Shown: positions 790 through 15,035, counted from the stretch's first letter. The stretch is DNA of 15,035 bases from a virus (IMGVR_UViG_2565956611_000003:1-15035); one strand, 5' to 3'. The notes: generated by a model not told the origin, from the letters alone. Numbers and translations: made by a program.

Positions 790-1080
790 TTACCGCCGTA
801 AGTGCTCCGGCTTCCTCCACTGGTAAGTATTTTTCGCGCTCTCCCTCCGTTGTTGAGAACGGCGACGGTATGCCAGCAACTCAAGAACTCTGGTTCGTAT
901 GTTGCGCATATCCACGCCGTTAAGCTCAATACCGTCACGGCGCATTACCTCAGCCACCACACGCGCGTAATTTTCGGCTATCACGCTGTCCGGCTGTGTA
1001 GCCTGTTCGTCAGGCTGCTGACTGATTCCGGTAATGCGGCGAATTATTTTTAGTAGATCAGTTTCAGTCATTCTCGTCAT
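790..1080 (-). CDS. Hypothetical small protein (96 aa) immediately downstream of terL
   Basis: ATG at 1080-1078 overlaps the terL stop (ATGA). The first ~75 residues look protein-like; the C-terminal ~20 residues are Arg-rich with rare codons (CGG, AGG), so the true 3' end is uncertain. Confidence 0.4.
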   Translation of the reverse strand: MTRMTETDLLKIIRRITGISQQPDEQATQPDSVIAENYARVVAEVMRRDGIELNGVDMRNIRTRVLELLAYRRRSQQRRESAKNTYQWRKPEHLRR

Positions 1081-2738
1081 ACCCCATCAAATGCCGCAAG
1101 TCGCTCTTTCTGGCTGTCGCTCATATCAAATGCAAATTCCTCATGCTCAGCCTGGAATGTGCCAAACGCCATCAGCGCCGCAACGCTCGGGTCTATCTTA
1201 TTGGATGATTTTTTCTTGTTCGGCTTGATATTGGCGTTCGCGTCACTCTGCATCACAACATTACTCATTGACCAGGCCAGCACCGGATCACCACGATGAA
1301 CAATCACCTTCCGGTTAACAAAAACTTCGAACGATTTCGCCGCCGGACTAAAACGAAGGTACGTTTGCGGGAACGGCTCCACCTCAAATCCCGCTCCCTG
1401 TAGCTGCGTCCTCAGGTGCGTGGCGTTCCATGTATCGAAACCCACCAGCCTGATATTGAAATTCTCTGCATCCGCCATGATGTCATCACGGATACGGTCA
1501 TAATCAATGCAGTCACCCGGTGTTGTGCGTATCCAGCCCGCCTTTGCCCACTGGCGATAGATGGCGCGGTTTTTATTGGCAGGGTTCTGTAGCTGAAATT
1601 CCGGTAGATAGTGACGTGAAACCAGCATAATCTTTTTACCGACCGGAAAGGCATAGCACACGCTGGAAATATCGCTGGTTGATGATAAGTCCAGCCCCGC
1701 ATAGCACTCCTGCCCGTATAAATCCGCCTCAGCGAACGTTCCGGCGCACTCCGCCCATGCACCGTTACCCATCCACGGCGTAGCCCCCTGACACCAGATA
1801 TTGAATCGCTTGGTGAGCATTTCCACCCACTGCGACGGAATACCCCGCGCTTTCTGGATGGTTGAGGCCAGTTTTTCACGATCGACGGAAACATCGATAT
1901 TGGGATTCGCCTTTATCCACATCGCCGGATCGTCAACCTCGCTTTCATCATCCAGCTCGTAAATCAGTACGAACATGGATTCGTTCACCTCTTCACCATC
2001 CAGTATCTGGCAGCAATAGTCGTAGTGTTGTTTACAGGCTGAAACAACGTTGCTCCCCGATGTGGTGATGGCAAATAACAGCCCCTCCGGACGCGCCCCC
2101 ATCCCCAGTTCAAGTGCGGAATAAACCCCGTTGTCTGGGTGCAGGTGATATTCATCCACAATGGCAAGACTCGGGTTTGTCCCCTCAATGGTTGCCGCTT
2201 TTGCTGCCAGTGGCTTTAACAGGCTGTTGGTTTTCGGGTGTATCACCTTGTGCGCCTGAATATTTACCCGCTTTCGTAACGGTCGGGATAAAAGGCACAT
2301 CTGACGCGCATCATCAAACACGATCCGCGCCTGATCACGACTCACGGCGGCGGTGTAAATATCCTGCTGCCCGTTTTCCATAACCAGAAACCAGTTAGCC
2401 AGGATAGCGGCGACCGTGGATTTGGCATTTTTTCGCGGTACTTCAATGAATGCGCTGGTGTATTTGCGCCGTCCGGTGGCCTTAACCTTAAATCCCAGGA
2501 TGCAGGCAAAGGCGAACTGCTGCCACGGCTCAAGTTCAATGGGGCTACCGCGCATTGCGCCTTTTACGTGCGGGCACACCCGGGAAAAGGCAATAAACCG
2601 CTCCACGACCTCCGGATCGAACGTGTAAAGGGAGTTTTCAAGGTCAGAAAAATACCGTTTAACAGCCTGTTTCAGTCGTTTACAGGCCGTAATTTTGCCG
2701 TTTTTTACGCCTTCTGCGTACTCATGCCAGGCGGTCAA
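1077..2738 (-). CDS. terL: Terminase large subunit (Terminase_1 / HK97-like family)
   Basis: 553-aa ORF with a Walker-A-like motif (VPRKNAKST) near the N-terminus and typical TerL size. Start is TTG at 2738 preceded by a strong SD (AGAGGAAGAGGA) and overlaps the terS 3' end by 17 nt. Sits directly after TerS and HNH. Confidence 0.9.
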   Translation of the reverse strand: MTAWHEYAEGVKNGKITACKRLKQAVKRYFSDLENSLYTFDPEVVERFIAFSRVCPHVKGAMRGSPIELEPWQQFAFACILGFKVKATGRRKYTSAFIEVPRKNAKSTVAAILANWFLVMENGQQDIYTAAVSRDQARIVFDDARQMCLLSRPLRKRVNIQAHKVIHPKTNSLLKPLAAKAATIEGTNPSLAIVDEYHLHPDNGVYSALELGMGARPEGLLFAITTSGSNVVSACKQHYDYCCQILDGEEVNESMFVLIYELDDESEVDDPAMWIKANPNIDVSVDREKLASTIQKARGIPSQWVEMLTKRFNIWCQGATPWMGNGAWAECAGTFAEADLYGQECYAGLDLSSTSDISSVCYAFPVGKKIMLVSRHYLPEFQLQNPANKNRAIYRQWAKAGWIRTTPGDCIDYDRIRDDIMADAENFNIRLVGFDTWNATHLRTQLQGAGFEVEPFPQTYLRFSPAAKSFEVFVNRKVIVHRGDPVLAWSMSNVVMQSDANANIKPNKKKSSNKIDPSVAALMAFGTFQAEHEEFAFDMSDSQKERLAAFDGV

Positions 2739-3078
2739 GTTCGTCCTCTTCCTCTGTTTCCGGTGGATTTCTGCGACGGCTTACCGGGTCAAAACCCAGC
2801 AAAGAAGCCATTTTGATCATTATTCTTTCTGCGTCAGCCTTTGCGCTCAGTGCGGGGTTTCTGCTCTCGCTGCCCTGACTGTTAACAATGCTGAACCCGC
2901 GCGTCGCAAGGTCTTCGACGGCTTTGCGGTATATAGAGTAGTTAACGCAATACAGTTCCAGATTGCTCCAGTCGGCGGGGGTAAGGTCTTCCCGCCCGGA
3001 AAGCTGGCGTGATTTTTCCTTCCACTGCCTGACCGCGATTTCATCCAGGTAAGCGGGGGCTTTTGGTGGTCTTGCCAT
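2722..3078 (-). CDS. terS: Terminase small subunit, P27 family
   Basis: Translation from the internal ATG at 3078 (MARPPKAPAYLDEIAVRQW...LELYCVNYSIYRKAVEDL...RNPALSA...GFDPVSRRR) fits the P27-type small terminase pattern. The ORF-track N-terminal extension to 3219 has non-protein-like composition and would cover the putative cos region. Confidence 0.8.
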   Translation of the reverse strand: MARPPKAPAYLDEIAVRQWKEKSRQLSGREDLTPADWSNLELYCVNYSIYRKAVEDLATRGFSIVNSQGSESRNPALSAKADAERIMIKMASLLGFDPVSRRRNPPETEEEDELDRLA

Positions 3079-3129
3079 GTTCTTTTTTCGCCCAATTATT
3101 TTCAAAAAAATTACCGTGCACAAAAATTT

Positions 3130-3189
3130 GAGGGGGCGGTCGGTGTCCGGCAGGGACGGTTTCGTCCTGAAAACCACCCCCACCCCCTC
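3130..3189. other. Candidate cos / packaging recognition region between HNH and terS
   Basis: 288-bp non-coding gap (3079-3366). GAGGGGG (3130-3136) and CCCCCTC (3183-3189) flank a GGACG-GTTT-CGTCC hairpin (3154-3167), with C5 tracts at 3176-3187. HNH-cos-terS-terL is the usual layout of HK97-like cos phages. Confidence 0.35.
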
Positions 3190-3366
3190 TGACGGCCTCA
3201 CCAGCGATTGCGAAAACATTCCATGACCTCGCGGTCACGGTCGGTTAATCGCTTCGCTGTGGTGCGTTTTGTGCGCCCTGTCCTGTTGGCTTTGTGCTCT
3301 GTCTCCTGTGTCTTCCATGTGTCACGCTGCCTTATCAGTCCACGTATCAGCCTGGTTTGCTCCTGT

Positions 3367-3807
3367 TCAGTCATCATCGCCATACATCCAGTTGTTACGG
3401 TGTGCCGCCCGTTCTTCCTGCTCGCGATACATGCCCGCTTTACGGTTTGCTTTCGTGGCTGGATCTTCTCGTGTCGTCTTACGGTTGTGGCACGTCTGGC
3501 ACAATGCCTGGTGATTCCACTCAGGCCAGAAGAGAACATCACCGCCGCCATTGATGGGAATGATGTGATCCACCACAAGAGCTGGCGTATAAATCCCCTT
3601 AGCCAGACAACGCACGCATAACGGGTTTTTGCTCAGGTACAGGGCGCGGTATTTGTCCCACTGTCGGGAATACCCGCGCGCGCGGCGGTGTCCCCGTCTG
3701 GCATCCTCTGCACGCCATGCAGCCCGCCTGTGCTCTTCACACTTGCCGGACTTCACGCGCTTATTACAGCCAGGCTCAGTGCATCGCCTTAATGGTTGCC
3801 ACGGCAT
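3367..3807 (-). CDS. HNH endonuclease (terminase-associated, phage packaging type)
   Basis: 146-aa ORF with CxxC...DHIIPINGGG...N...CQTCHNRKT, a classic HNH zinc-finger nuclease motif. ATG at 3807 overlaps the connector stop by 1 nt. Located immediately upstream of terS. Confidence 0.85.
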   Translation of the reverse strand: MPWQPLRRCTEPGCNKRVKSGKCEEHRRAAWRAEDARRGHRRARGYSRQWDKYRALYLSKNPLCVRCLAKGIYTPALVVDHIIPINGGGDVLFWPEWNHQALCQTCHNRKTTREDPATKANRKAGMYREQEERAAHRNNWMYGDDD

Positions 3808-4109
3808 CAGTACACCCCTACGTCACGATAAACTGACCAGAGCGCAGAAATAGCCATAGGCAGTTCCGAGTGCTCCACTGGTGAAACCGCTTCCCGGTTC
3901 TCGTACAGGAAAGCGATGTACATCAGGCAACCAACACGCATTGCCGGGGTAAATTCCAGCCCGTCTTCAAAACGTTTCCCGATATGCTTCTGGCAGGCTT
4001 CCAGCGCCGCATCGGTATACATTTTCAGAAGTTCGCCTTCACCGGATAAATCATCATCAAGTCGAAGATGTGCCCTGACTTCATCAGGTGTAATTCTGGC
4101 TTCACTCAT
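3807..4109 (-). CDS. Head-tail connector / adaptor protein, gp6-like
   Basis: 101 aa from ATG 4109 (MSEARITPDEVRAHLRLDDD...LLKMYTDAALEACQKHIGKRF...), matching the gp6-like head-tail connector pattern. SD GGGAGA lies in the portal 3' end; 8-nt overlap with the portal stop. The ORF-track GTG start at 4196 would sit deep inside the portal gene. Confidence 0.75.
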   Translation of the reverse strand: MSEARITPDEVRAHLRLDDDLSGEGELLKMYTDAALEACQKHIGKRFEDGLEFTPAMRVGCLMYIAFLYENREAVSPVEHSELPMAISALWSVYRDVGVY

Positions 4110-5316
4110 CTTTTCTCCCTTTAATTTCCACAGTCTGTTTCCATGCCTGGCTGAACTCATCACCACCTTCACGCGGCGGCATACCCTCACGCTCACGGGC
4201 TTCGTTCGGATTCATGATCCCGTTCTTAATCCCTTTCTCATACGTGGCATAACGTTCGGTGGGTGTGGCGCGTAATAAATCGGCTGAATCAAACTCAACC
4301 AGATAACGGGTACCAGGTACGGGAGAAGCCACCAGCAAAGCGGCCTTGATTTGCTGTTCGAAGTTCGCCAGCCACGGGCGCATTGTCATGGTCAGAAACG
4401 CGCGGCTTGCCTCGCTGAAATTGCTGTAGGTGCTGTTGCTGTATTCCTGCAGAAAAATAGGCGATACGTTGAACATGCGGGCGATGTCTTCAATGGAGAA
4501 GCGACGGGAGGCCAGCCATTCCGCATCCTGGTTACTCATTCCCAGTTGCCTGTAATCCATGCCCCCTTCAAGGATTGGCGTTTTTCCGGCATTTTTCGCC
4601 CCCTTGTAGCGTTCCAGAGCATCCAATGCCTGTTTACCTTTCACGCCGTCCAGCCATTCGCCTGACGTGATAATCCCTGCCGCCATCATGCCATCTTTCA
4701 TAATGCTGGCTCCGTGACGCTGTTGAGCAAGGCCAAGCCCCAGCGCCTCACGGCAAATCGTGACGGGGGAACGCCCCAGAAAGCCATCATCCGAGGCATA
4801 GCGGAGATGCAAAACTTCTTCCTGTAAATACGTGCGCACCGTTCCTGTACAGGGTTCGGTGATGGTATAGCGGTATTTGTGTGCGCCTGTGCGTTCCGGT
4901 ACAACACACCCCGGCGCATAAGGATGAAGTGATTTTGGCTGCCCGTCCTGCCCCCACTCAATAACCGCATAGGCGTTACCGTTCAGCAGGCAGTGACGCA
5001 TCATTGTGCGTTTAAACTGGTAAGGTGTCTGGCACGAATTAGGCTGCTCATTCAGCAGAATATCTACTGGGTGACTGTCCAGCCATTCCCGCGCCTCCCT
5101 GCCCTTGTCATTACGTACCAGATACAGATAACACGGCATCGTGGCCACCGCCTCAGCGATGACAGAAACCGCATTCATCACTGCAGGCAATGATTCAGCC
5201 GTCCCGGCAGAAACATATTCTCCGGATCCGGTATTCGGTACGCCGGACAGCGCCAGAAAATCATCAATGGACAGGTTACGCTGCTCGCTTTTTTTACGAC
5301 TAAAAGGCCACCACAT
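4102..5316 (-). CDS. Portal protein, HK97 family
   Basis: 405 aa from ATG 5316 (MWWPFSRKKSEQRNLSIDDFLAL...), 1 nt after the protease stop. Size and position between protease and connector fit a portal. The ORF-track TTG start at 5406 would overlap the protease gene by about 90 nt. Confidence 0.85.
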   Translation of the reverse strand: MWWPFSRKKSEQRNLSIDDFLALSGVPNTGSGEYVSAGTAESLPAVMNAVSVIAEAVATMPCYLYLVRNDKGREAREWLDSHPVDILLNEQPNSCQTPYQFKRTMMRHCLLNGNAYAVIEWGQDGQPKSLHPYAPGCVVPERTGAHKYRYTITEPCTGTVRTYLQEEVLHLRYASDDGFLGRSPVTICREALGLGLAQQRHGASIMKDGMMAAGIITSGEWLDGVKGKQALDALERYKGAKNAGKTPILEGGMDYRQLGMSNQDAEWLASRRFSIEDIARMFNVSPIFLQEYSNSTYSNFSEASRAFLTMTMRPWLANFEQQIKAALLVASPVPGTRYLVEFDSADLLRATPTERYATYEKGIKNGIMNPNEAREREGMPPREGGDEFSQAWKQTVEIKGRKDE

Positions 5317-5317
5317 A

Positions 5318-5878
5318 TCACAACCCCGCCAGCTCAGACCAGCGATGACGATTATTTCCTGTCGGACGTAATTCAGGGTGCTGTGCAAACAACGAACGGT
5401 GGGCAATCTCCACGCCAGATTCTGGATAAGCAGGCATCGACGTTATTGTGATTTCACGGAGTTCAGCGGCGGTTACGGTACGCAGATACGGTTTTTGCGC
5501 GATACTCCACTCCTCGCATAATGCGCGAAAACCAAAGCTCATTCCTGTAATGTCGCCACGCTCCACCAGCGTAAGCACATCTTTTCCAAGCTGGGTATCC
5601 GGCGGTGTCAGTTCAAAACGTAACCCGGTGTTATCCTCAGTCAGTACCAGAGTGCCGGATTTGGTGCGCCCCAGCAGTTGGGTATAGTCATGCTCATACA
5701 GGCAGCGCACATCATTACCCGTCGCCAGATAGTCAGCAAAAGCCCCCGGCGTGAACTGTTCGCGGAATTCGTCCCAGATAATTTCTGAAAGGCTGTTCCA
5801 GCGAACGGCATACCCCACCAGCTTTTTATTGCTGGCGGTCAGTTCAGATGTGCGGATTTCAAAATCGGTGTTTTTCAT
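5318..5878 (-). CDS. Prohead maturation protease, HK97 family (S78-type)
   Basis: 186 aa with VGYAVRWN...H...ITGMSFGF motifs typical of HK97 prohead proteases. ATG at 5878 with GGAG 8 nt upstream. Confidence 0.85.
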   Translation of the reverse strand: MKNTDFEIRTSELTASNKKLVGYAVRWNSLSEIIWDEFREQFTPGAFADYLATGNDVRCLYEHDYTQLLGRTKSGTLVLTEDNTGLRFELTPPDTQLGKDVLTLVERGDITGMSFGFRALCEEWSIAQKPYLRTVTAAELREITITSMPAYPESGVEIAHRSLFAQHPELRPTGNNRHRWSELAGL

Positions 5879-5897
5879 CGGTGTACTCCATAAAGCT

Positions 5898-5920
5898 GAA
5901 AAAGGAGGCCGCAGCCTCCT
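5898..5920 (-). terminator. Intra-operon stem-loop plus U-run (attenuator-like) between capsid and protease genes
   Basis: On the minus-strand transcript, 7-bp stem AGGAGGC/GCCTCCT with 4-nt loop, followed by UUUUU, in the 54-nt gap after the capsid stop (5933) and before the protease start (5878). Confidence 0.5.
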
Positions 5921-5932
5921 CCTTACTCATGA

Positions 5933-7102
5933 CTAGCCAGCTTTCATTTCCAGAATTTTGATGGCGTTTGAATCCACCACACCACCGCCCAGATATTTAT
6001 CCGTGTGGACCTTGTAGAATCCGGGTTCAGTAATGTTGTCCGGTCGGGTGCGAATCCCTGTTACATGATCAACGATGAAATAACCACGACTGAAATCGCC
6101 AACCGCTAGCGGTGCTTTTCCTGCGCCGATGTCCGGCATGGACTCCAGGCAGTAAACAGGACGACCAAGCAACATATCCGGCGCACCTTCTTTAAGGCTG
6201 TCGCGCCAGATATAATCGCCGTTCTCATTTTTCAGCTTCTGTAGTGTCCCTGCCGTGCCCGAGTTCATCACCCAGACGGCATTTTTGCGGTATTTCGCTT
6301 TCAGCTTGTAGAGAATGTCGATCAGTTCGTCCGCTGTAATGGCGGTTCCACTTGCCGCTACTATTTTTTCAATGGTGCCAAAAGCGCGGGTTTTGTCACT
6401 GGTCGCCGCACGGGTGTAAGCCATGAAGCCTTTCGGCTTGCCGTTACCGTCGCCATTAACAAAATCATCCTCTTCGGTGCTGGCGAACGTGTCGGCAATT
6501 TCGGAGGATAACCAGCCCAGAATATCCACCTCTGAAAAATCCAGGATTTCCTGCGTGGTTTTCGGGTAGGCGTAGATCGGATTCAACTTGATGGTTACGC
6601 GTTCAATTTTCGGGGTGTTGGTTTCACTGCGTGCGCTGCCTTCTGTGCCTCGTCCTACAGTTGCGCCGCCAGTGGAAACCAGTTTCTGAAACTCATTTGA
6701 TTTTGCGGTCTTCACGGTCGCGATCACGCGCATAACACTGTCATCCTGTAGCTGGCGCATGACTTCGCGATCAAGCTCAGGAATTACGGTATATCCGCCA
6801 TCCCTGCCGCTGTCAGTGCTGGTGGACAGTGATCGCACATCTCCGGTTACGATGTAGTTACGCAATTCATCAGATGATAATTTCTGGATGCCCGTTCCTG
6901 GCTTGCTGCGTTCTTCATCAGCCACAGACTCGAGGCGGGAAATTTCTGTGTCGAGGGCATCAGCTTTTGCACGCAGTTCATCAAACTGTTTGCCTTCTTC
7001 AGCGTTCAGACTACGGTTTTCACTGTCGGCTTTTTCCAGCAGGGATCGCATCTGGTTTTTCAGGGCGTTTTTTTGCTGGCGGAGTTCGATTAATTTCTTC
7101 AT
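5933..7102 (-). CDS. Major capsid protein, HK97 family
   Basis: 389 aa with an N-terminal coiled-coil delta-like region (MKKLIELRQQKNALKNQMRSLLEKA...) and a body containing DFVNGDGNGKPKGF, typical of the HK97 fold. First gene of the head operon. Confidence 0.9.
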   Translation of the reverse strand: MKKLIELRQQKNALKNQMRSLLEKADSENRSLNAEEGKQFDELRAKADALDTEISRLESVADEERSKPGTGIQKLSSDELRNYIVTGDVRSLSTSTDSGRDGGYTVIPELDREVMRQLQDDSVMRVIATVKTAKSNEFQKLVSTGGATVGRGTEGSARSETNTPKIERVTIKLNPIYAYPKTTQEILDFSEVDILGWLSSEIADTFASTEEDDFVNGDGNGKPKGFMAYTRAATSDKTRAFGTIEKIVAASGTAITADELIDILYKLKAKYRKNAVWVMNSGTAGTLQKLKNENGDYIWRDSLKEGAPDMLLGRPVYCLESMPDIGAGKAPLAVGDFSRGYFIVDHVTGIRTRPDNITEPGFYKVHTDKYLGGGVVDSNAIKILEMKAG

Positions 7103-7388
7103 GAAGGTTTTCTCGTATTGGTTAAGATTCAGGACGTGAAACCAACACGGGGGGAGCGCCGCCCGACACTCTCGGCATCTCGCAGATCAACCCGGCATCG
7201 CGCAGGGGGTCAGGCGGCATTGTGGCGGCTCACGTCTGAGTGCCACGCTCCAACATATACATAAAAATCAGTATGTAAACACCTGTCAGTCAGACCGAAC
7301 AACCACGAAAGAACACGAACAAATAATTTACAAAAGAAGTAAACCATGGCCTATTATTGCTGTCTCTGACTACAACAAAGGACGCATC

Positions 7389-7895
7389 ATGAATTTAAGC
7401 GCAATGGTATATCCTGATACTTTCATAATTAATGGCGAATCATTCAGAGGTAAAAGAAACGCAAAAGAAAACAAGGTATTAATTCCATATACAAATGAAC
7501 CGGAAGTAACTATTGGTCAACACATTATCCAGCGTGTCGGTAAAAACGAGATAAATCTAAAAATTATAGATATGAAGTTGCTTCCCAATGGAACCCGCAG
7601 ACAGGGAACCAATCATCCAAATATGTTGACTCTCTATATTGAAAATATCACGGGAAATGAACATATGACGCCAACTAAAAGTAATACATTTAACATTGGT
7701 TCAATTAGTGGTGATCAAGTGCAGATAGGTGAGCATAACCATATGCTGGTAAACATCAGCATCACTGAACTGGTTGAAAAAGTCGCTAAATCGGGGGATG
7801 TACAAGCCAAATCAGTATTAAAGCAGTTACTGGAAAACAGTACCGTTGCCAGCATTGTTGGGGCTGGCGCAAGTGCCCTAATAGGCTTACTGTAA
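7389..7895 (+). CDS. Hypothetical protein (168 aa), AT-rich cargo gene with hydrophobic C-terminal segment
   Basis: ATG 7389 with AAGGA 7 nt upstream. Visibly AT-rich compared with flanking genes. The C-terminus (STVASIVGAGASALIGLL) is hydrophobic and Gly/Ala-rich. Stand-alone plus-strand gene followed by a strong terminator. No family recognised. Confidence 0.6.
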   Translation: MNLSAMVYPDTFIINGESFRGKRNAKENKVLIPYTNEPEVTIGQHIIQRVGKNEINLKIIDMKLLPNGTRRQGTNHPNMLTLYIENITGNEHMTPTKSNTFNIGSISGDQVQIGEHNHMLVNISITELVEKVAKSGDVQAKSVLKQLLENSTVASIVGAGASALIGLL

Positions 7896-7932
7896 AAAAA
7901 TGGCCTGGATTTTACCAGGCCTTTATTATTTT
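7896..7932. terminator. Bidirectional rho-independent terminator
   Basis: GGCCTGG (7902-7908), loop ATTTTA, CCAGGCC (7915-7921), flanked by A8 upstream and TTTATTATTTT downstream, so U-runs on both strands. Sits between the convergent 168-aa gene and the minus-strand replication-module operon. Confidence 0.7.
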
Positions 7933-8227
7933 ACCGTTTCACGGGATCTCGCATTCTGCGCCTTATTTTCCACAGATATTCGATCATCGCTTCCACCTGC
8001 TCACGGTTGGTTGCGAAAATTTCCCCGGTCAGTGAGCTACGCAGAAAATCATGATGATCCACAACAAACAACGCATCGGAAGAAAGCAGACGGCGATATT
8101 TTTTTGCTGTCATGGTTTCCAGATCATCAAAATCATGAAACTTTTTATGTTGCTGGACTTCTTCAAATGTCACTGGAATGTCCCCTCTGTTGTCGCTAAA
8201 ACGGTATGTTGTCCCCGTACGGATCAT
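7931..8227 (-). CDS. Hypothetical protein (98 aa)
   Basis: Protein-like composition; last gene of the minus operon running from the iteron region; overlaps the SSB 3' end. The start is ambiguous (ATG 8227 or ATG 8113) and no strong SD is seen. Confidence 0.45.
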   Translation of the reverse strand: MIRTGTTYRFSDNRGDIPVTFEEVQQHKKFHDFDDLETMTAKKYRRLLSSDALFVVDHHDFLRSSLTGEIFATNREQVEAMIEYLWKIRRRMRDPVKR

Positions 8228-8621
8228 CGTGCTGACCCGTCTGCTGTTTTGCCCTGTTCAGTGCGTCAGTGGCCTGCCCCTGCTGGCCTTTTTTGCCGCC
8301 CGGTCGCGCTGTTCGCGCACTGATCACGCTGTCTGCGATAACCTGCCAGCCCTGCCGCGTTTCGCCGTTCTGGCCTGTCCACTGGCTTACCTGCATGTTA
8401 CCCGCCACGCTCACCAGTTCGCCTTTGTGGTGTTTTGCCAGTGCGTCGGCCTGTCTGCCAAACGCCAGGACGGATAACCACATCATCGCCGTTCCGTCAT
8501 CTGCCTGGCTGCACGGAAGGGGGACCGCCATACTAGCCATCGTCATTTGTGTACCCTTGCTGGTGGTCTTTAACTGCGGGTCAGCCACCAGCCGCCCGTA
8601 AGCCGCTATCTGTGCTGTCAT
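8196..8621 (-). CDS. ssb: Single-stranded DNA-binding protein (SSB-like, OB-fold) with acidic C-terminal tip
   Basis: 141 aa. The C-terminus ends ...DDPYGDNIPF, resembling the conserved SSB tail (DDDIPF). The N-terminal region aligns by eye to the SSB OB-fold (IAAYGRLVADPQL...; WLSVLAFGRQADALAKHHKGELVSVAGNMQVSQWTGQNGETRQGWQV). ATGA overlap with the upstream ORF. Confidence 0.7.
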   Translation of the reverse strand: MTAQIAAYGRLVADPQLKTTSKGTQMTMASMAVPLPCSQADDGTAMMWLSVLAFGRQADALAKHHKGELVSVAGNMQVSQWTGQNGETRQGWQVIADSVISARTARPGGKKGQQGQATDALNRAKQQTGQHDDPYGDNIPF

Positions 8622-8863
8622 GCTGTCTGCTCTCCGGTTTTAACGTTGATGGTTGTCACCTGTTCCGCTTCGGCAATCTCCCGTTCTGTCAGCGTGGCAA
8701 AGTTTGCAGCTGCCGTTGTCATGAATGCGCTAATCAGTTCGGGATGTGCTTTCGCATATCCTTCCCCGGCGTTGCGGTCGATGATTTTTATCGACACCCT
8801 TAACCAGTGTTCCGTCAAATCAAGGGCGTGCGATTGTGATTTTTTTGTGTGCTTCGCTGTCAT
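8618..8863 (-). CDS. Hypothetical protein (81 aa), first gene of the operon leaving the iteron region
   Basis: ATG at 8863; translationally coupled to ssb (ATGA). No family recognised. Confidence 0.45.
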   Translation of the reverse strand: MTAKHTKKSQSHALDLTEHWLRVSIKIIDRNAGEGYAKAHPELISAFMTTAAANFATLTEREIAEAEQVTTINVKTGEQTA

Positions 8864-8908
8864 AGGCTTTATCTCACAGCAGTAAATTAAAATTTTTGCG
8901 TTTTAACC

Positions 8909-9136
8909 CTTCACCTGTTCACCTTTTGATATTTTCCATTTAAATTCATACTGTTAAGGGGTGAACAGTTTCACAAAAACTATTCACCAACTGTTCACCA
9001 CTGTTCACCCTTGAAGCTCAATAAACAACCAAAAAGGTGAACAGTGAATAGTTTGGTGAACAGTTCATAAATAACTGTTCACCCTATAATATACTGATAT
9101 AAAAGATAATTATGACAGGCTGAACAGTGGTGAACA
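8909..9136. repeat. Iteron array / candidate origin of replication (P4-type TGTTCACC octamers plus AT-rich segment)
   Basis: Eight perfect octamers: TGTTCACC at 8916, 8992, 9002, 9076 and the reverse complement GGTGAACA at 8960, 9036, 9055, 9129. Degenerate copies near 8909, 8981, 9044, 9119. AT-rich stretch with TATAAT at 9085-9118. Lies directly 3' of the primase/helicase gene. Confidence 0.8.
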
Positions 9137-9150
9137 GTTATTCAATAAGT

Positions 9151-10968
9151 TTAATTTTTGCTATCGTCATTAGTGACCGATACACATGATGGCATCCAGT
9201 CTTCTGATTCCTCCGTCAGTGTCACGTTTGAACGAAAACCGTGCTTCGTTTTCCGTTTCATATACTCCCTGCCATATTCCGCCATTGCCCCCGGCATATC
9301 TTTACCGAAGCGCGTCAGTGTTACAGGTTTACCAAACCCATGTGCCCTCATATAAGCCAGATAGGCATGATAGAGATACCTGCGTGGGCTGAATGGCACA
9401 ATTTCAGCATTACCCACTAACAGGCCATCACACATTACCGACGCCATGAGATAGCCGCAGAAGTCCACCAGCGAATCCCCCTCTCGCTTTATCGCCAGTG
9501 CTTCTTCAGATTTCTGCTGCTCATATAACAGGCGTCTGGCTTCGTCCTGGTCAGCAAACCGTGTAAGCAGATGGCGAATCACTACCGCCAGCTCACCTTC
9601 TATTTTTTCCGCCAGCATTGGATCGCGTTCGTTCTCCGGTACAACTTCCGAAAAATTGAATATCACCCGACGACGTGAGATCCCCCCGCTGCGGTCACTG
9701 AATGACATGGCGTTATTGTTAACCGCCAGCACTACTGCCGGAATACGCGTTGAGTAGGGGGCTTTGTGTTTCGGGTCAATTGCCACCTTGTCACCGCCTG
9801 TAATAGCCTTAATCCCTGCCCCATCACCAGCGTAGCGGGTCATATCCGGCATGATAATCAGCGAAAAGCCAACCACTAACGCGCGTTCCCTTGCATCTTC
9901 CAGCGCCTTCATGCTTGCCGATACTGTGTTGGCCTTACCCGCCAGCATGGTGCAAATCTCCGCCATCACGCTTTTACCACTTCCCCCTGGACCTGTTACC
10001 TCAATGAATAACTGCCAGTCGTACCGGTTCGCCAGCACCATGAATAATGCAGCCAGTACGCGATCCGCCTTGCGGTCATTCTCAGCCACCGAACGGCGTA
10101 ACCACTTCCAGAAATTCGGCGCATGTGTTGCCAGCGTTTCCCCCTCTGCTGGTGGGCTGAAAGGTAATTCACTGGCAATTAACAACCAGTCGTTTTTGTT
10201 ATGCTCCCGAAAATTACCTGTTCTGGTATCAAATACCCCGTTACTGAATCCAATCAGGTTACGGGCTGTATTCCCCATTACAGGCAAACTTAACTTCATG
10301 GTATCGACCGCCGATTTAATGGCGTTCTGCGAATAGCTGATCTCCGCATCAATGAAAATCTGTGCCATAGCTCGCTGTAATTCTTTATCCTGTACTGGCT
10401 CCCATACAACGCCGTTGTAATGGTGAACAGTGTCAGAGTCAGCATGAATCGCCAGTTCACCGCCATAATGTGCCAGGAGAACTTCGCCGCGTTGACTTGC
10501 TCCCATCTGGTTAAGCGCCAGTGATGAAGCGTTATCGTCTTTTACCCGCTCTTTTTTCTTTACAGGCAGTTCAACTACCTTTTTCTTTTCCGCCTGCTCT
10601 GCCCGTTCACGTTCCAGATATTCGCGCCAGTTCTCCCGTTTCTGGCTGTGCATTCCTTCAGGGTAATAATCAGCATCCCTGACACCTGCCACTGCCAGTT
10701 TCTGCCCGATGGTATTAACAAGCCCCGGACGCAATAACCCCGCCTGATAGAGACGCACGCGATAGCGTCCGTCCGATACGATTTGCAGGTTGTCCAGTTC
10801 GGCAAGTTGTTGCTCTCCAAGCCAGACAGGTGGCACGTTATCGCCAGCCAGTCGCCCGTCCTGTTCCTGCCACTGTTTCGCATGTGCCCACGCATCACTA
10901 CCCGCAAAAATGATGACTTCCGTCATTTTGTCACGCGGCTGGTGTTTTAAATTTGGCGCTTTTTTCAT
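9151..10968 (-). CDS. Replication initiator, primase/helicase type (P4 alpha-like / D5-like SF3 helicase with Walker A)
   Basis: About 605 aa from ATG 10968 (SD GGAGAGAG upstream; ATGA overlap with the preceding ORF). Walker A motif TGPGGSGKS mid-protein; large multi-domain protein next to the iterons. The ORF-track start at 10983 is GTG. Confidence 0.8.
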   Translation of the reverse strand: MKKAPNLKHQPRDKMTEVIIFAGSDAWAHAKQWQEQDGRLAGDNVPPVWLGEQQLAELDNLQIVSDGRYRVRLYQAGLLRPGLVNTIGQKLAVAGVRDADYYPEGMHSQKRENWREYLERERAEQAEKKKVVELPVKKKERVKDDNASSLALNQMGASQRGEVLLAHYGGELAIHADSDTVHHYNGVVWEPVQDKELQRAMAQIFIDAEISYSQNAIKSAVDTMKLSLPVMGNTARNLIGFSNGVFDTRTGNFREHNKNDWLLIASELPFSPPAEGETLATHAPNFWKWLRRSVAENDRKADRVLAALFMVLANRYDWQLFIEVTGPGGSGKSVMAEICTMLAGKANTVSASMKALEDARERALVVGFSLIIMPDMTRYAGDGAGIKAITGGDKVAIDPKHKAPYSTRIPAVVLAVNNNAMSFSDRSGGISRRRVIFNFSEVVPENERDPMLAEKIEGELAVVIRHLLTRFADQDEARRLLYEQQKSEEALAIKREGDSLVDFCGYLMASVMCDGLLVGNAEIVPFSPRRYLYHAYLAYMRAHGFGKPVTLTRFGKDMPGAMAEYGREYMKRKTKHGFRSNVTLTEESEDWMPSCVSVTNDDSKN

Positions 10969-11264
10969 TTCTGCTCTCTCCACGCGGCAATCATGTTTTT
11001 TAGTTCCTGTAGTTTTTTATCAACATCCATACATGACACATGGTTATTTCTGGAAAGCGGGATTTCCCGACTGAATCTGCTAATAAAGATCTCCACGTTC
11101 AGCGAACTAAGAAATGAATAGCCATCACGGATAAAATACACACGGTCAAACATCAGTTCTTTTACCGTTACTCTGTTACCGTTCTTATCCAGATAAATAG
11201 CGCCGGGGATAATTTGGGGGTGTGCATAACCGCTGGCAGTCAAGCCAGATAAATACGTTCTCAT
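10965..11264 (-). CDS. Hypothetical protein (99 aa)
   Basis: ATG at 11264; stop overlaps the primase start (ATGA). Moderately AT-rich. No family recognised. Confidence 0.5.
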   Translation of the reverse strand: MRTYLSGLTASGYAHPQIIPGAIYLDKNGNRVTVKELMFDRVYFIRDGYSFLSSLNVEIFISRFSREIPLSRNNHVSCMDVDKKLQELKNMIAAWREQK

Positions 11265-11270
11265 GATTAT

Positions 11271-11591
11271 TTATCCCCGATTTGAATCAGTATTCGCTTT
11301 CTTTATAGCATTTAATGCATCTGTGGCATTTTCAATGGTGCACCGTAACGAAATATCAAAATGTCCAAGCATTGCCAGTAACAAACCGATATTACCCATA
11401 TCAATGCGCATGGCCTTTTCGTCATAGTCCTCATTTTCTGACGCATGCCACATCAGGCTACCAATTGACGCAACAGCCATTGATATATTGTCAGTAGCCC
11501 CATCCGCAGCGGAATAAACCTTTTTAGCAATATCATGCTCACAGTTAAAATGCGGATTAATCAGGTACTGGTAATTTGACATATCAGGCAT
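11271..11591 (-). CDS. Hypothetical protein (106 aa)
   Basis: ATG at 11591 preceded by a G7 run acting as SD; 6-nt gap to the next ORF. No family recognised. Confidence 0.5.
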   Translation of the reverse strand: MPDMSNYQYLINPHFNCEHDIAKKVYSAADGATDNISMAVASIGSLMWHASENEDYDEKAMRIDMGNIGLLLAMLGHFDISLRCTIENATDALNAIKKANTDSNRG

Positions 11592-11787
11592 GGCACCCCC
11601 CCTGACGAATACGGGCGGCGAATACCATCACGCAGCCAGCCGGGGATTGCTGGCGTGCTTCCTGTTCGCTGCTGGCCTCAATGGTAATCACGCGCGGTTG
11701 TGCCGTGCTCAGGGCGATAAAACGCCAGATGTATTTATTCAGGTTGTACGAGTCCCGCCCTTGCGGGTGTATGGTATGATTTCTCAT
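11584..11787 (-). CDS. Hypothetical small protein (67 aa from the internal ATG; ORF-track version starts at a TTG at 11877)
   Basis: ATG at 11787 with GAGG SD. First gene after the leftward promoter. The 3' end contains the G7 tract and overlaps the next gene by 8 nt; it may be the N-terminal part of a frameshifted longer gene. Confidence 0.4.
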   Translation of the reverse strand: MRNHTIHPQGRDSYNLNKYIWRFIALSTAQPRVITIEASSEQEARQQSPAGCVMVFAARIRQGGCHA

Positions 11788-11885
11788 AGCTGCCTCGATA
11801 CTCTCGTTATCGTTGGTGGTTAGACGCCCCGTATGTGTTTCCGGCACTGCGGGGCGTTGCTCTTTGTATTTCAACAATCCTTTCG

Positions 11886-11963
11886 GTGTGTTTCATGTTA
11901 TGAGCGCATGAAACACACGTCAAGGCTTTTTGTATTTCTTTTTTTGTGTATACTGAAACACAC
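11886..11963. promoter_or_regulatory. Divergent promoter/operator region with three TGAAACACAC sites
   Basis: Perfect 12-bp inverted repeat GTGTGTTTCATG (11886-11897) / CATGAAACACAC (11907-11918) overlaps a leftward TTGACG-17-TAACAT promoter (-35 at 11923-11918, -10 at 11900-11895, minus strand). A third TGAAACACAC (11954-11963) overlaps a rightward TATACT -10 (11949-11954) upstream of the 11985 gene. Confidence 0.5.
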
Positions 11964-11984
11964 CGATGATTAGGAGTTTCAGAA

Positions 11985-12290
11985 ATGGCAACGGCTAACA
12001 AAAACGCAAAATCACAACTGACAACTGTCAGAGTCCCACTAGATGTTATGCAAGGGATGGAATCCGTTAAGCTGGACGGCGAAAGCAATGCCGGATTTAT
12101 CGTAACCGCCATGCGCGGAGAAATAGCCCGCCGCCAAGCAGAAGGCAGCGGAGAAAATCCCCTTGTGTCGTCACTGGATGCCCTGGCTAAGGTCGAACAA
12201 ATCGGCATCAAAGCAGCGGAAGAAATCGGGCAGCTTGTCACCGTTGCACGCGAAGAACTCCAGCGTCGCAAGACCAAAGAACCAGAGTAA
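11985..12290 (+). CDS. Putative small DNA-binding regulator (101 aa; possible ribbon-helix-helix type)
   Basis: ATG 11985 with AGGAG 8 nt upstream; typical enterobacterial codon usage. N-terminal QLTTVRVPLDVMQGM resembles a beta-strand-then-helix RHH start; this is a weak inference. Convergent with alpA. Confidence 0.55.
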   Translation: MATANKNAKSQLTTVRVPLDVMQGMESVKLDGESNAGFIVTAMRGEIARRQAEGSGENPLVSSLDALAKVEQIGIKAAEEIGQLVTVAREELQRRKTKEPE

Positions 12291-12332
12291 TCACCATCAG
12301 CGCCGTGGTGTAAGGTATTACGGCGCATTGCT

Positions 12333-12521
12333 ATGCAGGACAACACAATGACCGATAAAGAATTGACCAAAACATTATCACCGGCACGGAAAAGACGGCG
12401 CAGAAAGATAGAGCATGAATCAGAAAGATTCGCGCCATGTGCTTTTGCTCTTGAGAAATTCCTTAAAGAGCACAGGAAAAAGCTCTCGTTGCAAACCTTG
12501 GAACGAACCAAATCTGACTGA
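12333..12521 (+). CDS. Hypothetical basic small protein (62 aa), doubtful
   Basis: Follows the 101-aa gene and precedes the 12590 terminator; contains an RKRRRRK stretch. Weak SD and several rare codons (AGA, AGG, CGG, ATA). Confidence 0.3.
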   Translation: MQDNTMTDKELTKTLSPARKRRRRKIEHESERFAPCAFALEKFLKEHRKKLSLQTLERTKSD

Positions 12522-12589
12522 TCACATTGCCCACCAGCCGCAAATGTGGCATTGTTGGTGATGCGTTCAAGTTTAGTGTGTATCCATTG

Positions 12590-12618
12590 GCGACCGCCCC
12601 CGGTCGTCTTTGTTTTAT
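12590..12618 (+). terminator. Rho-independent terminator for the plus-strand operon
   Basis: Stem CGACCG (12591-12596), loop CCCC, CGGTCG (12601-12606), followed by TCTTTGTTTT. No U-run on the opposite strand. Confidence 0.6.
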
Positions 12619-12635
12619 ATGTCATATGCTCCCCT

Positions 12636-12860
12636 TTACGCTGCCTTACCTGAATTAACGCGGTCACGGCTTTGCACCCAGTCCATAACTTCGGAAAGCA
12701 ACCAGCCTACAGAACGCCCCCCAAGATTACGGCGAGACGGAAAGCCCCCTTTCTTCTCCAGTTCGTAGCGTGTAGTACGGCTGACGCCTGTTAACTTACG
12801 ACATTCATCCTCACGAATTACGCGATCTGTTAGTGATTGAAATTGTGTATTTTGATTCAT
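12636..12860 (-). CDS. alpA: AlpA-family prophage transcriptional regulator (small HTH excisionase-like activator)
   Basis: 74 aa (MNQNTQFQSLTDRVIREDECRKLTGVSRTTRYELEKKGGFPSRRNLGGRSVGWLLSEVMDWVQ...) matches the AlpA/CP4-57 regulator pattern. ATG at 12860 with GAGGG SD. Position near the integrase is typical. Confidence 0.85.
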   Translation of the reverse strand: MNQNTQFQSLTDRVIREDECRKLTGVSRTTRYELEKKGGFPSRRNLGGRSVGWLLSEVMDWVQSRDRVNSGKAA

Positions 12861-12892
12861 AAAAACACCCTCGAACGTAACCGAACAAGGGC

Positions 12893-12920
12893 ATCTTATT
12901 TACCATAGCAGTTGGTGCAA
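12893..12920 (-). promoter_or_regulatory. Candidate sigma70 promoter for alpA
   Basis: Minus-strand TTGCAC (12920-12915), 16-bp spacer, TAAGAT (12898-12893), about 30 nt upstream of the alpA ATG. Confidence 0.35.
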
Positions 12921-12963
12921 TATTGGAAAAATAAACTTTATTCTAATTTATCGTTCTCCATGA

Positions 12964-13818
12964 TTAATTTTCATTAGATAACATTTTTCTTATTTTTTCT
13001 AAAGAATCGCTGCGCATTATTTTTTCTAAGAAGGGTTTTACAGTCTGAGCAATAGCAAAGGTGTCCTTTTCACCATCAGGATACAAAGATACGGCAAGCA
13101 CCCCTAATGAAATTTTTCTATCTGTAGACAACTCCCAAGATAATAAGTCAATTAATGGGATTATCTTATAATCAATAATTTTACGTCGTATGCTCTCCCA
13201 ACTTCCTGCAATTGGTTTGTCTGGCTCAACAATTGAAAGTTCACTACGCCATTTTGGTAATAGTTTTGTAAACGCTTCAATCAACTCATCATCTCTGTTA
13301 TGTAGTAAGTCAACAGAAACAAGCATATTATCTAATGTATCAGAAAGGAGATTCACTGGTTCACGCATCACAGCCCAAAACATCCCATTATCTTCTGATA
13401 TTAAACTTCCAACCATCTCATTATCTATGATGATTGGTTTATCCTTCCAATATCCTCTTTCCGCAGTCAGTTTATTAATCATTGATATATCAAACCTTGT
13501 TACAGGTTTAATTCCATCATCATAACTTAGCTCAATTAACTTCGGTTGCACTTTATGGTCATATTCTTTTTGTTTATCACAAAACCAATCGTCTTCTTTC
13601 AGCTCTCCAAATGGATCCCCGTAATTATTATGCAACGGGTATTCAGCACCAAACATAAATCCATATTCAGGCATCTCAGAATGTTTCATCGTTAAATCAT
13701 CTTGTCGCCAATATAATTGGCGAAATAGATCTTTATCCGACAAGTTTTCTAGGCAATCATATTTGCCTAAATCAAATGACTTTGGTAAATCTTTTTTACT
13801 ATTTACTTTTTTCGTCAT
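12964..13818 (-). CDS. Hypothetical protein (284 aa), AT-rich cargo gene between integrase and alpA
   Basis: ATG at 13818 overlaps the integrase stop (ATGA) with GAGGG SD. Markedly AT-rich compared with int and alpA. Acidic, soluble-looking protein; no family or catalytic motif recognised. Confidence 0.7.
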   Translation of the reverse strand: MTKKVNSKKDLPKSFDLGKYDCLENLSDKDLFRQLYWRQDDLTMKHSEMPEYGFMFGAEYPLHNNYGDPFGELKEDDWFCDKQKEYDHKVQPKLIELSYDDGIKPVTRFDISMINKLTAERGYWKDKPIIIDNEMVGSLISEDNGMFWAVMREPVNLLSDTLDNMLVSVDLLHNRDDELIEAFTKLLPKWRSELSIVEPDKPIAGSWESIRRKIIDYKIIPLIDLLSWELSTDRKISLGVLAVSLYPDGEKDTFAIAQTVKPFLEKIMRSDSLEKIRKMLSNEN

Positions 13819-15035
13819 TGTATCCCTCTCAATATCACAATATTTTCATTATATCCTGCAATCATATCAAGACGCTCAACCCATAGATTCAGTGCGTCCC
13901 GTTTCGCCTGCAAATAGCGTGAATGGTTATAGGTTTTTTGCTGACCTGGCATCTGATGCGCTGTGATGTGCTCCACGATATGCGGATCGACACCTAAATC
14001 ATTCAGCATAGTTGTAAACGTGTGTCGGAAATCATGCAGCGTCCAGTGTTCCTGCTTAAGCCGCTTATGCGCATTTCGTCCATATTGCGCCACCGTGGTA
14101 TCTTTTTTCAGTTCGCCGAGTAATAACCCAGTGTGTGCGTTTTGCTCCACCAGCTTCTGAATGAACGGCAAAATACCATCAGGAATAGGTCGGAATATTG
14201 TTACCTTCGTTTTGCTGTGCTCTTTTGGCACTGTCCACAACATTTCTTTCAGATCCCATTCTTTGATCTCTGAAAGTCTGATCTCTGCCGTTCTGCACCC
14301 GAACACAATTAACAAGCGCATTAACGCACTGTAATAGGGAGCGAACACATCACCATCAATAGCGCGTAGAATTTCTTTTAGTTCGCTGTTGCTGTGCACT
14401 CTCTCGCGGATTTCTGCTCTCTTACCCACATCAGTAACGATCAAATCGTCCAGGGCGTTGCTAAACGCGTAGCGCCGCCTGCGGCAAAACTTTAGCGCCT
14501 GTTTGCATGTCTGCATGACATGGCCCGCTGCTACTGGTGCTTTTTTTCGTACGCGGTCAAAACATGCGATCCACTGCCTTGTATCACACTTATCAAGGGG
14601 AATTGCCCCAATATGGCAAATGATGTGCTTATCCATACGCTGCACCAGCTTTATGTAATCTTTGCGGTTATCCTTCGCGTATTCCTCCAGCCAGTAGTTA
14701 ATCGCTTCCTTCACCGTAACGGGTTTTAGTGCTTCCTGTACTGTGGCGCACAACTCATAACGGGGGTTTTTACCCTCAGCCAGCCATGCCCGGCACAGTG
14801 TGCGTTTTTCCCTTGCGGCTTTCAGCGACAATTCAGGGTAAGCCCCCAGCTTTAACCGCTCTGCGGCAACCTCACGGCCTCCCGTTCGGTACCGGAAATA
14901 CCAGGTTAATTTGCCGCCCTTTGAGTGTTTAATCTCCAGCCCGCCCCCGTCGGAGTAAAAACGCTCTTTTTCTGCCTGGACAGCCGCCAATTTTTTTAAC
15001 GTCGAATCGCTCAGTTTGTTTAGTGCTTTTCCCAC
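13815..15035 (-). CDS. int: Tyrosine integrase, P4 family (5' end at or just beyond the window edge)
   Basis: 406 aa read to the window edge. C-terminal catalytic region with LHDFRHTF (HxxR) and a downstream Tyr (KTYNHSRYL). The N-terminal region (LSDSTLKKL...LGAYPELSLKAAREKR) resembles P4-type integrase arm-binding domains. The first codon in the window is GTG. Confidence 0.9.
   Translation of the reverse strand: MGKALNKLSDSTLKKLAAVQAEKERFYSDGGGLEIKHSKGGKLTWYFRYRTGGREVAAERLKLGAYPELSLKAAREKRTLCRAWLAEGKNPRYELCATVQEALKPVTVKEAINYWLEEYAKDNRKDYIKLVQRMDKHIICHIGAIPLDKCDTRQWIACFDRVRKKAPVAAGHVMQTCKQALKFCRRRRYAFSNALDDLIVTDVGKRAEIRERVHSNSELKEILRAIDGDVFAPYYSALMRLLIVFGCRTAEIRLSEIKEWDLKEMLWTVPKEHSKTKVTIFRPIPDGILPFIQKLVEQNAHTGLLLGELKKDTTVAQYGRNAHKRLKQEHWTLHDFRHTFTTMLNDLGVDPHIVEHITAHQMPGQQKTYNHSRYLQAKRDALNLWVERLDMIAGYNENIVILRGIQ

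Follow-up and report, generated by a model that had tools for sequence, protein, structure and literature searches.

A 15.14-kb Escherichia coli element resembling phage-inducible chromosomal islands of the capsid-forming type, with an attachment site in the thiM riboswitch, a one-gene neck and a predicted structured capsid leader

We analysed a 15,035-nucleotide stretch of viral DNA (IMGVR_UViG_2565956611_000003:1-15035; the whole stretch is referred to here as the window, and positions are counted from its first nucleotide) which carries genes for integration, replication, head assembly and DNA packaging. A preliminary description had read positions 790-15035 as a satellite that joins P4-type integration and replication parts to its own HK97-type head and terminase genes, with no tail genes, and had likened it to those phage-inducible chromosomal islands that form capsids (cf-PICIs). 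This family has already been described experimentally, with genetic and structural characterisation and hundreds of catalogued members, and the likeness is borne out, in that the modules of the window and their order are those of Sp7, the 15,461-bp prophage of the Sakai strain that is the counterpart of the prototype cf-PICI, EcCIEDL933 of E. coli O157:H7. The best explanation, in which we place considerable confidence, is that the window represents nearly all of an intact 15.14-kb cf-PICI of E. coli which operates by the same mechanism as its relatives; the element is a further, intact-looking member of the family.

Genes and limits of the element

Every open reading frame (ORF) was scanned against Pfam, NCBIfam and PHROGs, and the accessory ORFs were also examined with PADLOC. 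All of the genes named in the preliminary description were recovered in these scans and are intact, as are all other ORFs of the element. The head and packaging genes constitute a single operon on the minus strand, beginning with an HK97-fold major capsid protein (5933-7102; PF05065; E = 7e-154 to the solved cf-PICI capsid PDB 9gyi_B) and continuing through an HK97-family prohead serine protease of the S78 type (5318-5878; PF04586), a portal protein (4102-5316; PF04860), a gp6-like head-tail connector (Ad1, 3807-4109; PF05135, TIGR01560, phrog_40) which is the sole neck gene, an HNH endonuclease corresponding to a packaging cofactor (3367-3807; PF01844), a 61-residue protein designated orf61 (3198-3383; phrog_3173; 77% identical to its Sp7 counterpart), the P27-family small terminase TerS (2722-3078; PF05119/TIGR01558), and the large terminase TerL (1077-2738; PF03354 and PF20441; 93% identical to that of Sp7 and 99% to that of the APEC17 cf-PICI). 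A conserved 93-residue gene follows terL (790-1071; phrog_1561, of unknown function) and is 73% identical to Sp7 ECs_1599. The capsid, protease and portal scores against PF05065, PF04586 and PF04860 are all well over the cut-offs. From its position and the gene numbering, orf61 is likely to be the counterpart of EcCIEDL933 gene 1792, mutation of which sharply lowers transfer (Alqurainy et al., bioRxiv 10.1101/2022.09.08.507074).

No tail, lysis or holin genes were identified with Pfam, NCBIfam or PHROGs in any ORF of the element, nor in the 8-kb flanks on each side. The preliminary description had pointed to tail genes co-transcribed with terL just beyond position 1, as expected of a complete prophage, and to degraded structural genes, as findings that would contradict it; beyond position 1 are instead the core genes thiM and thiD, and the structural genes are all intact in a window that recurs with 100% or almost 100% identity in eight or more complete E. 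coli genomes (100% to CS5L and several others, and at least 99.9% to SMS-3-5).

The remaining genes are located between the capsid gene and the right end, on the minus strand unless stated otherwise. Closest to the capsid gene, in a low-GC variable region, is a 168-residue accessory gene (orf168; 7389-7895, plus strand; phrog_5789, of unknown function), followed by an 82-residue conserved hypothetical gene (7931-8179; phrog_1957), a single-strand DNA-binding protein (SSB, 8196-8621), an 81-residue conserved hypothetical gene (8618-8863; phrog_1231), and a primase/SF3 helicase (pri-rep, 9151-10968; D5_N/DUF5906/Pox_D5). Next are genes coding for a DUF4222 protein (10965-11264), a 106-residue hypothetical protein (11271-11591; phrog_15327) and an Icd-like small protein (11584-11787), with a YlcI/YnfO-family gene (11985-12290, plus strand) divergent from the replication operon. 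The right end contains an AlpA regulator/excisionase (12636-12860; PF05930, E = 4.8e-16), a DUF6387 accessory gene (12964-13818) in the lowest-GC stretch of the element (0.36-0.39), and a tyrosine integrase with an arm-binding domain (13815-15035; PF13356, PF22022, PF00589), whose nearest match among 'phage' records, at 51% identity, is in the cf-PICI-like vB_KppS-Ant.

The iterons noted in the preliminary description are real and far above chance, with nine occurrences of TGTTCACC against 0.5 expected and none of 200 shuffled sequences reaching nine. Eight of these are clustered at 8916-9136, in the 223 bp just downstream of the primase gene, and extend to the 9-mer CTGTTCACC. This replication-origin-like region (8915-9137, with repeats in both orientations) contains eight exact copies of the 9-mer and two with one mismatch, and adjoins an AT-rich patch. 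The term P4-type is apt in a broad sense, with an arm-binding integrase as in P4 and CP4-57 and an AlpA protein, but not in a strict one, as the primase scores 95 bits against the TIGR01613 P4-family domain, under its 108.7-bit cut-off; the int-alpA-primase module is that of Gram-negative PICIs.

The orf168 and DUF6387 genes occupy low-GC variable slots in which cf-PICIs are thought to carry immune or defence systems (He et al., bioRxiv 10.1101/2025.02.11.637232). There are no Pfam, NCBIfam or PADLOC matches for orf168 and none in PADLOC for the DUF6387 gene; among the accessory ORFs PADLOC gave nothing usable, the single match being to BrxA for orf93 (E = 0.007).

The limits of the element were defined by aligning both junctions with the empty site of E. 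coli K-12. A 14-nt attachment (att) core, ATACGGGTATTTCT, lies at 82-95 (attL), with the second copy 188 nt past the window end at window-equivalent positions 15223-15236 (attR), such that the element spans 15.14 kb from core to core, with the integrase at its right end. The start at 790 proposed previously is some 700 nt too far to the right. The element is integrated between thiM and rcnR, with thiM and thiD directly to the left of position 1, and rcnR and rcnA to the right.

Just inside each end of the island is one of a pair of 70-nt direct repeats, the left at 159-228 (plus strand) and a copy with 96% identity at 15069-15138 (23069-23138 of locus L001), spaced 14910 nt apart; both contain ACTGACCACACA twice in tandem. 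We considered these repeats as the element ends and rejected them, as the K-12 empty-site alignment places the 14-nt core further out and both repeats are internal. In a circular form they would be positioned on either side of the attP core, and they are probably arm sites for the integrase or sites bound by AlpA. In some genomes only, PGAP places a 53-residue hypothetical protein across the left arm repeat (139-300, plus strand), which is probably spurious. Between this repeat and the 93-residue gene, downstream of the packaging operon, is a variable end region (229-789) with a GC-rich hairpin (580-605) and a 22-nt palindrome (721-742); no convincing gene is present in it, and its sequence is not conserved in other cf-PICI loci.

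The neck and the candidate cos block

The preliminary description credited the element with a full head set, and this holds for the capsid, protease, portal, connector, HNH, TerS and TerL genes, but the PF05521 head-completion gene is absent and the portal and connector genes share an 8-nt overlap. In Sp7, in the Klebsiella island KpCIDSM30104, and in most relatives, there are two genes between portal and HNH, coding for a PF05521 protein and a PF05135 connector. The PF05521 protein is called the 'adaptor' by the Penadés group, and the adaptor and connector pair decides tail compatibility (He et al., bioRxiv 10.1101/2025.02.11.637232). Neither tblastn nor a profile hidden Markov model, built from 16 head-completion sequences and able to recover both positive controls and divergent Pasteurellaceae genes, reveals a PF05521 homologue in any frame of the window or the 8-kb flanks.

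The nearest packaging module is that of the APEC17 cf-PICI, which is 96.5% identical at the DNA level (98-99% for the portal and TerL proteins) and yet has a PF05521 gene. The connector of the element is only 56% identical to those of both Sp7 and APEC17 and forms a long separate branch, and by these sequence comparisons it looks as though the neck cassette has been swapped. Recent acquisition of the connector from a known phage was considered and rejected, as the best identities to true phages are 34-40%. The APEC17 island is itself inserted within the terL gene of an HK97-like prophage, with terL halves on both sides (5017-5760 and 21197-21638 of locus L003); head and neck genes of this prophage are adjacent to the helper-embedded island, and the head-completion proteins of island and prophage share 63% identity.

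The one-gene neck is not confined to this element. Among the 534 E. coli genomes that have a related head module, about 150 show this form, with identities ranging from more than 99% down to about 75%. Leclercia, Pantoea formicae, P. rodasii and Erwinia psidii have it as well, and in the portal and TerL trees these fall on separate branches. The form is polyphyletic, and we therefore regard it as a maintained variant and not a one-off deletion. There is no mention of adaptor-less islands in He et al.

In phage SPP1, the PF05521 family is also needed for holding DNA inside the head. Because the element encodes only the connector, it and other one-gene-neck islands probably borrow the stopper (the head-completion protein) from the helper as well as its tails. 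The alternative is that the element belongs to a true cf-PICI lineage but is transfer-defective, such that without the adaptor its filled heads can neither retain DNA nor dock with tails. The thoroughness of the search, in which the controls were found, is consistent with such a loss, as are the retention of the gene in the otherwise very similar APEC17 module and the role of adaptor and connector in determining tail use in characterised islands. However, the portal and connector ORFs cleanly abut or overlap in the one-gene form, the rest of the operon is without decay, and the abundance of this arrangement in E. coli, over a broad range of identities, together with its recurrence in Leclercia, two Pantoea species and Erwinia psidii, weighs against this alternative; many variants lacking one component are also functional according to SatelliteFinder. 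We consider a transfer defect to be unlikely, though of the alternatives it is the one to be taken most seriously. This recurrent adaptor-less lineage offers a natural test of the extent to which a satellite must encode its own neck, and of whether tail-less capsids can retain DNA without a stopper of their own.

Between orf61 and the TerS gene is a conserved non-coding block (3096-3186, minus strand) consisting of GGGGTGGGGG, then CCGACCGCCCCC, and then TCAAATTTTTGTGCACGGTAATTTTTTTGAAAATAA (TCAAATTTTT.....GAAAATAA), in which a G-run/C-run inverted pair precedes TCAAATTTTT...GAAAATAA, and the core is invariant from E. coli to the Pasteurellaceae. The cohesive-end site (cos) of HK97 sits between its HNH and TerS genes, and because of this analogous placement the block is likely to be a cos or terminase recognition site. 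A break inside the equivalent block is seen in vB_KppS-Ant, a record derived from virions; we considered taking the ends of this record as cos ends, but about 85 nt of the block are missing from it and the coincidence is only suggestive.

This record (Escherichia phage vB_KppS-Ant, LR881103.1, 16.5 kb) was deposited as a phage and has the size and gene content of a cf-PICI; a 766-residue gene after its TerL gene is annotated as a tape measure protein and is probably mis-annotated cargo. Pasteurella phages Pmp8 and Pmp7 (OR544139.1 and OR544138.1; 15.3 kb and 10.7 kb) were likewise deposited as phages, are of similar size, and carry the connector.

The thiM attachment site and the capsid leader

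The preliminary description mentioned a flanking tRNA or att core as the place to look for a direct repeat; a tRNA search found none, and the att core falls within the thiamine pyrophosphate (TPP) riboswitch aptamer of thiM. At the empty K-12 site the score of this aptamer is 71 bits, above the gathering score of 54. The lysogen's copy adjacent to thiM (34-116, minus strand) reaches only 35 bits, as the P1 and P2 helices are replaced by island sequence, and the 5' part of the aptamer is left beside rcnR, 15 kb away (23223-23290 of locus L001); presumably the thiMD promoter is stranded there with it. A consensus scan of the left 1 kb of the island for promoters that might read outward found none except one located upstream of a strong hairpin. 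The broken TPP aptamer is also the only notable sub-threshold match when the whole element is searched against Rfam, with no match at the gathering threshold. The attL junction is carried by 76 of 5426 complete E. coli genomes, and we found nothing relevant in the literature on thiM as an integration site for prophages or islands. Integration within a riboswitch aptamer couples carriage of the satellite to how the host controls an operon for vitamin salvage.

Upstream of the capsid gene is a sigma-70-like promoter (7279 to 7252, minus strand; TTTACA-16-TATGTT), preceded by a near-invariant box, TTTGTAAATTATTTGT (7319-7334, minus strand), in which 12 of the 16 columns are invariant across 15 aligned loci. 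A short upstream ORF starting from ATGTATAT was considered and rejected, since several lineages lack the ATG yet retain a TAnnnT -10 pattern. From the predicted transcription start, near 7245, a leader of about 145 nt (7103-7246, minus strand) is predicted to fold into three hairpins: H1 (7246-7222), a long and variable H2 (7218-7158), and H3, in which the 5' strand (7145-7129) pairs with the Shine-Dalgarno region of the capsid gene (7114-7106). The leader of the window folds better than its shuffled versions (z = -2.9), and single-sequence folds give the same three hairpins in nine of ten lineages, Pantoea formicae giving an alternative helix instead. RNAalifold on a plain MAFFT alignment recovered H1 alone, as the variable H2 was misaligned, and a covariance model was used in its place. 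This finds the leader in 57 loci, comprising the enterobacterial cf-PICI loci searched and 31 IMG/VR contigs, but not in the Pasteurellaceae. Scanning IMG/VR with the AT-rich 16-mer box retrieved 80 loci, of which 49 were chance matches lacking a leader.

In the model-guided alignment, which is fitted to the structure and therefore biased towards it, 93% of cells are paired over the whole structure (38-56% when the partners are slid), with compensatory changes in 16 of 31 pairs. The base of H2 contributes most to these (97% paired; compensatory changes in nine of ten pairs), followed by H1 (100%; four of nine) and H3 (90%; two of ten). The alternative helix is formed by the H1 loop and the 3' half of H1 with the 5' strand of H3; its core is 95-100% paired, and compensatory changes are seen only in the Sp7-type and Leclercia lineages. 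Forcing this helix costs 0 to 11 kcal/mol (about 5 for most sequences) and roughly halves pairing of the ribosome-binding region. We prefer a model, built on these predicted structures, in which the leader is probably a switch acting on translation, with off as its default state; it might instead serve in antitermination, as a put-like element, or stabilise the 5' end.

The leader has no match in Rfam, where the search gave only noise, and neither the promoter nor the leader is discussed in the cf-PICI papers of Alqurainy et al. or He et al.; the enterobacterial cf-PICI leader is conserved and apparently undescribed. It provides a handle on how expression of the packaging genes is controlled in cf-PICIs. 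Among the other loci examined, three from Erwinia tracheiphila (L034, L038 and L040) keep the leader, but of the capsid gene no more than the first 66-142 codons, and look like decayed cf-PICI remnants. A 394-nt contig of Streptomyces sp. NTH33 (L036, coverage 0.9) matches the N-terminus of the element's capsid with 86% identity and contains an exact copy of the last 32 nt of the leader, and is probably enterobacterial contamination. The Pasteurellaceae genome 'Macca' has an unusually large number of loci with a cf-PICI-type capsid module, about ten, some of which are truncated (L020-L022, L025, L026, L028, L030, L032, L037 and L039).

Interpretation and comparison with known systems

Homology with EcCIEDL933 and KpCIDSM30104 points to the following course. 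A helper phage would switch on alpA, upon which the island would excise, replicate from its own origin, and assemble small HK97-type capsids from its own proteins, small T=4 capsids being among the criteria for a cf-PICI. The island-encoded HNH, TerS and TerL would then cut its DNA, probably at the conserved block separating orf61 from TerS, and package it, and the filled heads would be joined to the tails of an HK97-like helper. Two steps would be particular to this element. The head-completion protein is probably also helper-derived, and the default fold of the leader would hide the ribosome-binding site and probably gate capsid translation, with the alternative H1:H3 helix exposing the site.

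Several considerations weigh against an intact, mobile cf-PICI. The near-identical copies are all at a single chromosomal site and some of the hosts may be related, such that they could reflect inheritance and not recent transfer. The element is known from its sequence alone, and mobility is attributed to it through homology with its relatives. The missing adaptor, as the partner of the connector in tail compatibility, could signify that the element is less autonomous than its relatives or defective, and support for the leader switch comes from structural prediction, with covariation of the alternative helix seen in just two divergent lineages. The one-gene neck, the riboswitch attachment site and the capsid leader are worthwhile parts of the analysis, and all three come from computation. 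That they hold jointly, with the leader being an undescribed cis-regulatory RNA, common to the enterobacterial cf-PICIs, that gates capsid synthesis until a signal comes from helper or island, the adaptor-less islands a cf-PICI sub-type that needs both a helper stopper and a helper tail, and integration disconnecting thiMD from its riboswitch, is a tentative proposal to which we give slightly less than even chances.

The packaging genes have clear kinship with HK97-like phages (HK97, HK022 and HK106), with which the element shares the HK97-fold capsid, S78 protease, portal, gp6-like connector, HNH, P27-type TerS and TerL. In contrast to these phages, it has no tail, lysis or immunity genes, its portal, protease and capsid genes run in the opposite order and come before the terminase genes, and its sequence identity to true phages is low. 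The description of the head order as inverted is correct with respect to HK97-like phages, but it is standard in cf-PICIs and not peculiar to this element. A scan using one genome per species identified 39 related loci, the intact ones all having the same packaging order, and the synteny extends to those loci of enterobacteria and Pasteurellaceae whose packaging operon is intact, that of K. pneumoniae ATCC 13883 (L031) among them. Because the capsid-first, terminase-last order is seen in all of the informative, intact loci, we take it to be the norm for the family.

Phage-homologous head and terminase genes without tail or lysis genes could also be what remains of an HK97-like prophage that has decayed, losing tail, lysis and immunity genes to become an immobile remnant. 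Such decay does not readily account for a 15.1-kb unit bounded precisely by att sites, with a PICI-type int-alpA-primase-iteron module and ORFs that are all intact and identical across genomes. Moreover, the gene order is unlike that of HK97-like phages, and both order and size are conserved in EcCIEDL933, which is mobile in experiments, and across intact loci from many species; the connector, too, is at most 34-40% identical to those of true phages. We therefore think it very improbable that the element is a prophage remnant.

With P4, the element shares an arm-binding-domain integrase, an AlpA-type regulator, a primase-helicase related to the P4-family domain and the logic of an iteron-type origin, but it has no psu, delta or sid, encodes its own head and terminase, and has a cos-like site tied to its own TerS. 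A strict P4-like satellite that remodels the capsids of a P2-type helper can be dismissed as having next to no chance of being correct, since the AlpA, the integrase and the sub-threshold primase similarity that favour it are set against the lack of any ORF match to the Psu, Sid, Delta or Epsilon families in the Pfam, PHROGs and NCBIfam scans and the presence of a capsid, portal, protease and terminase that P4 lacks.

An intact cf-PICI is the reading that agrees with the gene content as formalised in SatelliteFinder, in which 10 of the 11 core components of the cfPICI model are present, only the PF05521 adaptor being absent, and none of the forbidden components (tail and holin/lysis genes) is found. 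Its 15.14 kb also fall within the range of about 10-16 kb expected of a cf-PICI, an island with att repeats at its limits and a tyrosine integrase at one end. The element would be a 'Type B' (10-of-11) example, a class accepted as cfPICI by the model, in which many variants short of one component are complete and functional. Its int-alpA-primase/rep portion and presumptive alpA-dependent induction logic resemble the left half of the classical Gram-negative PICIs (EcCICFT073 and EcCIED1a), which differ in using helper capsids and the helper terminase, redirected by Rpp, and in lacking a portal, connector and TerL.

Among the cf-PICIs, KpCIDSM30104 and the related EcCIGN02175 are treated in He et al. 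(bioRxiv 10.1101/2025.02.11.637232). The operon order of KpCIDSM30104 is the same as that of the element, and the proteins are 76% (capsid), 84% (protease), 87% (portal), 85% (TerS), 82% (TerL) and 75% (primase) identical; it also carries the same structured capsid leader, at 158 bits. It differs in its integrase (51% identical) and AlpA (47%), and in having both adaptor and connector where the element has the connector only. For this comparison we used the ATCC 13883 locus, this type strain being, we presume, the same as DSM 30104, the host of KpCIDSM30104.

The organisation likewise corresponds to that of EcCIEDL933 and Sp7. EcCIEDL933 is helper-induced and requires alpA; its small capsids are of its own making and package only its own DNA, and tails are all that it needs from its helper (Alqurainy et al., bioRxiv 10.1101/2022.09.08.507074). 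The 385-residue Sp7 capsid has the residues D257, K290, D295, E319 and R345 cited in that paper, and its residues 1-202 are identical to the aligned PDB 9gyi chain (9gyi_B). The sizes are similar, 15.1 kb for the element and 15.4-15.5 kb for EcCIEDL933/Sp7, and the gene order is shared throughout, from int, alpA, primase and SSB through capsid, protease, portal, connector, HNH, a small ORF, TerS and TerL to the 93-residue ORF. Protein identities to Sp7 are highest for the terminase and its neighbours (TerL 93%, TerS 88%, HNH 85%, portal 81%) and lower for the integrase (66%), the capsid (62% globally, 63-64% locally) and the connector (56%). The two differ in attachment site, with the thiM riboswitch used by the element and the phoQ/roxA region in Sakai; in cargo, with orf168 and the DUF6387 gene where Sp7 has pchE; and in the neck, with Sp7 encoding a PF05521 adaptor, ECs_1593, that has no counterpart in the element.

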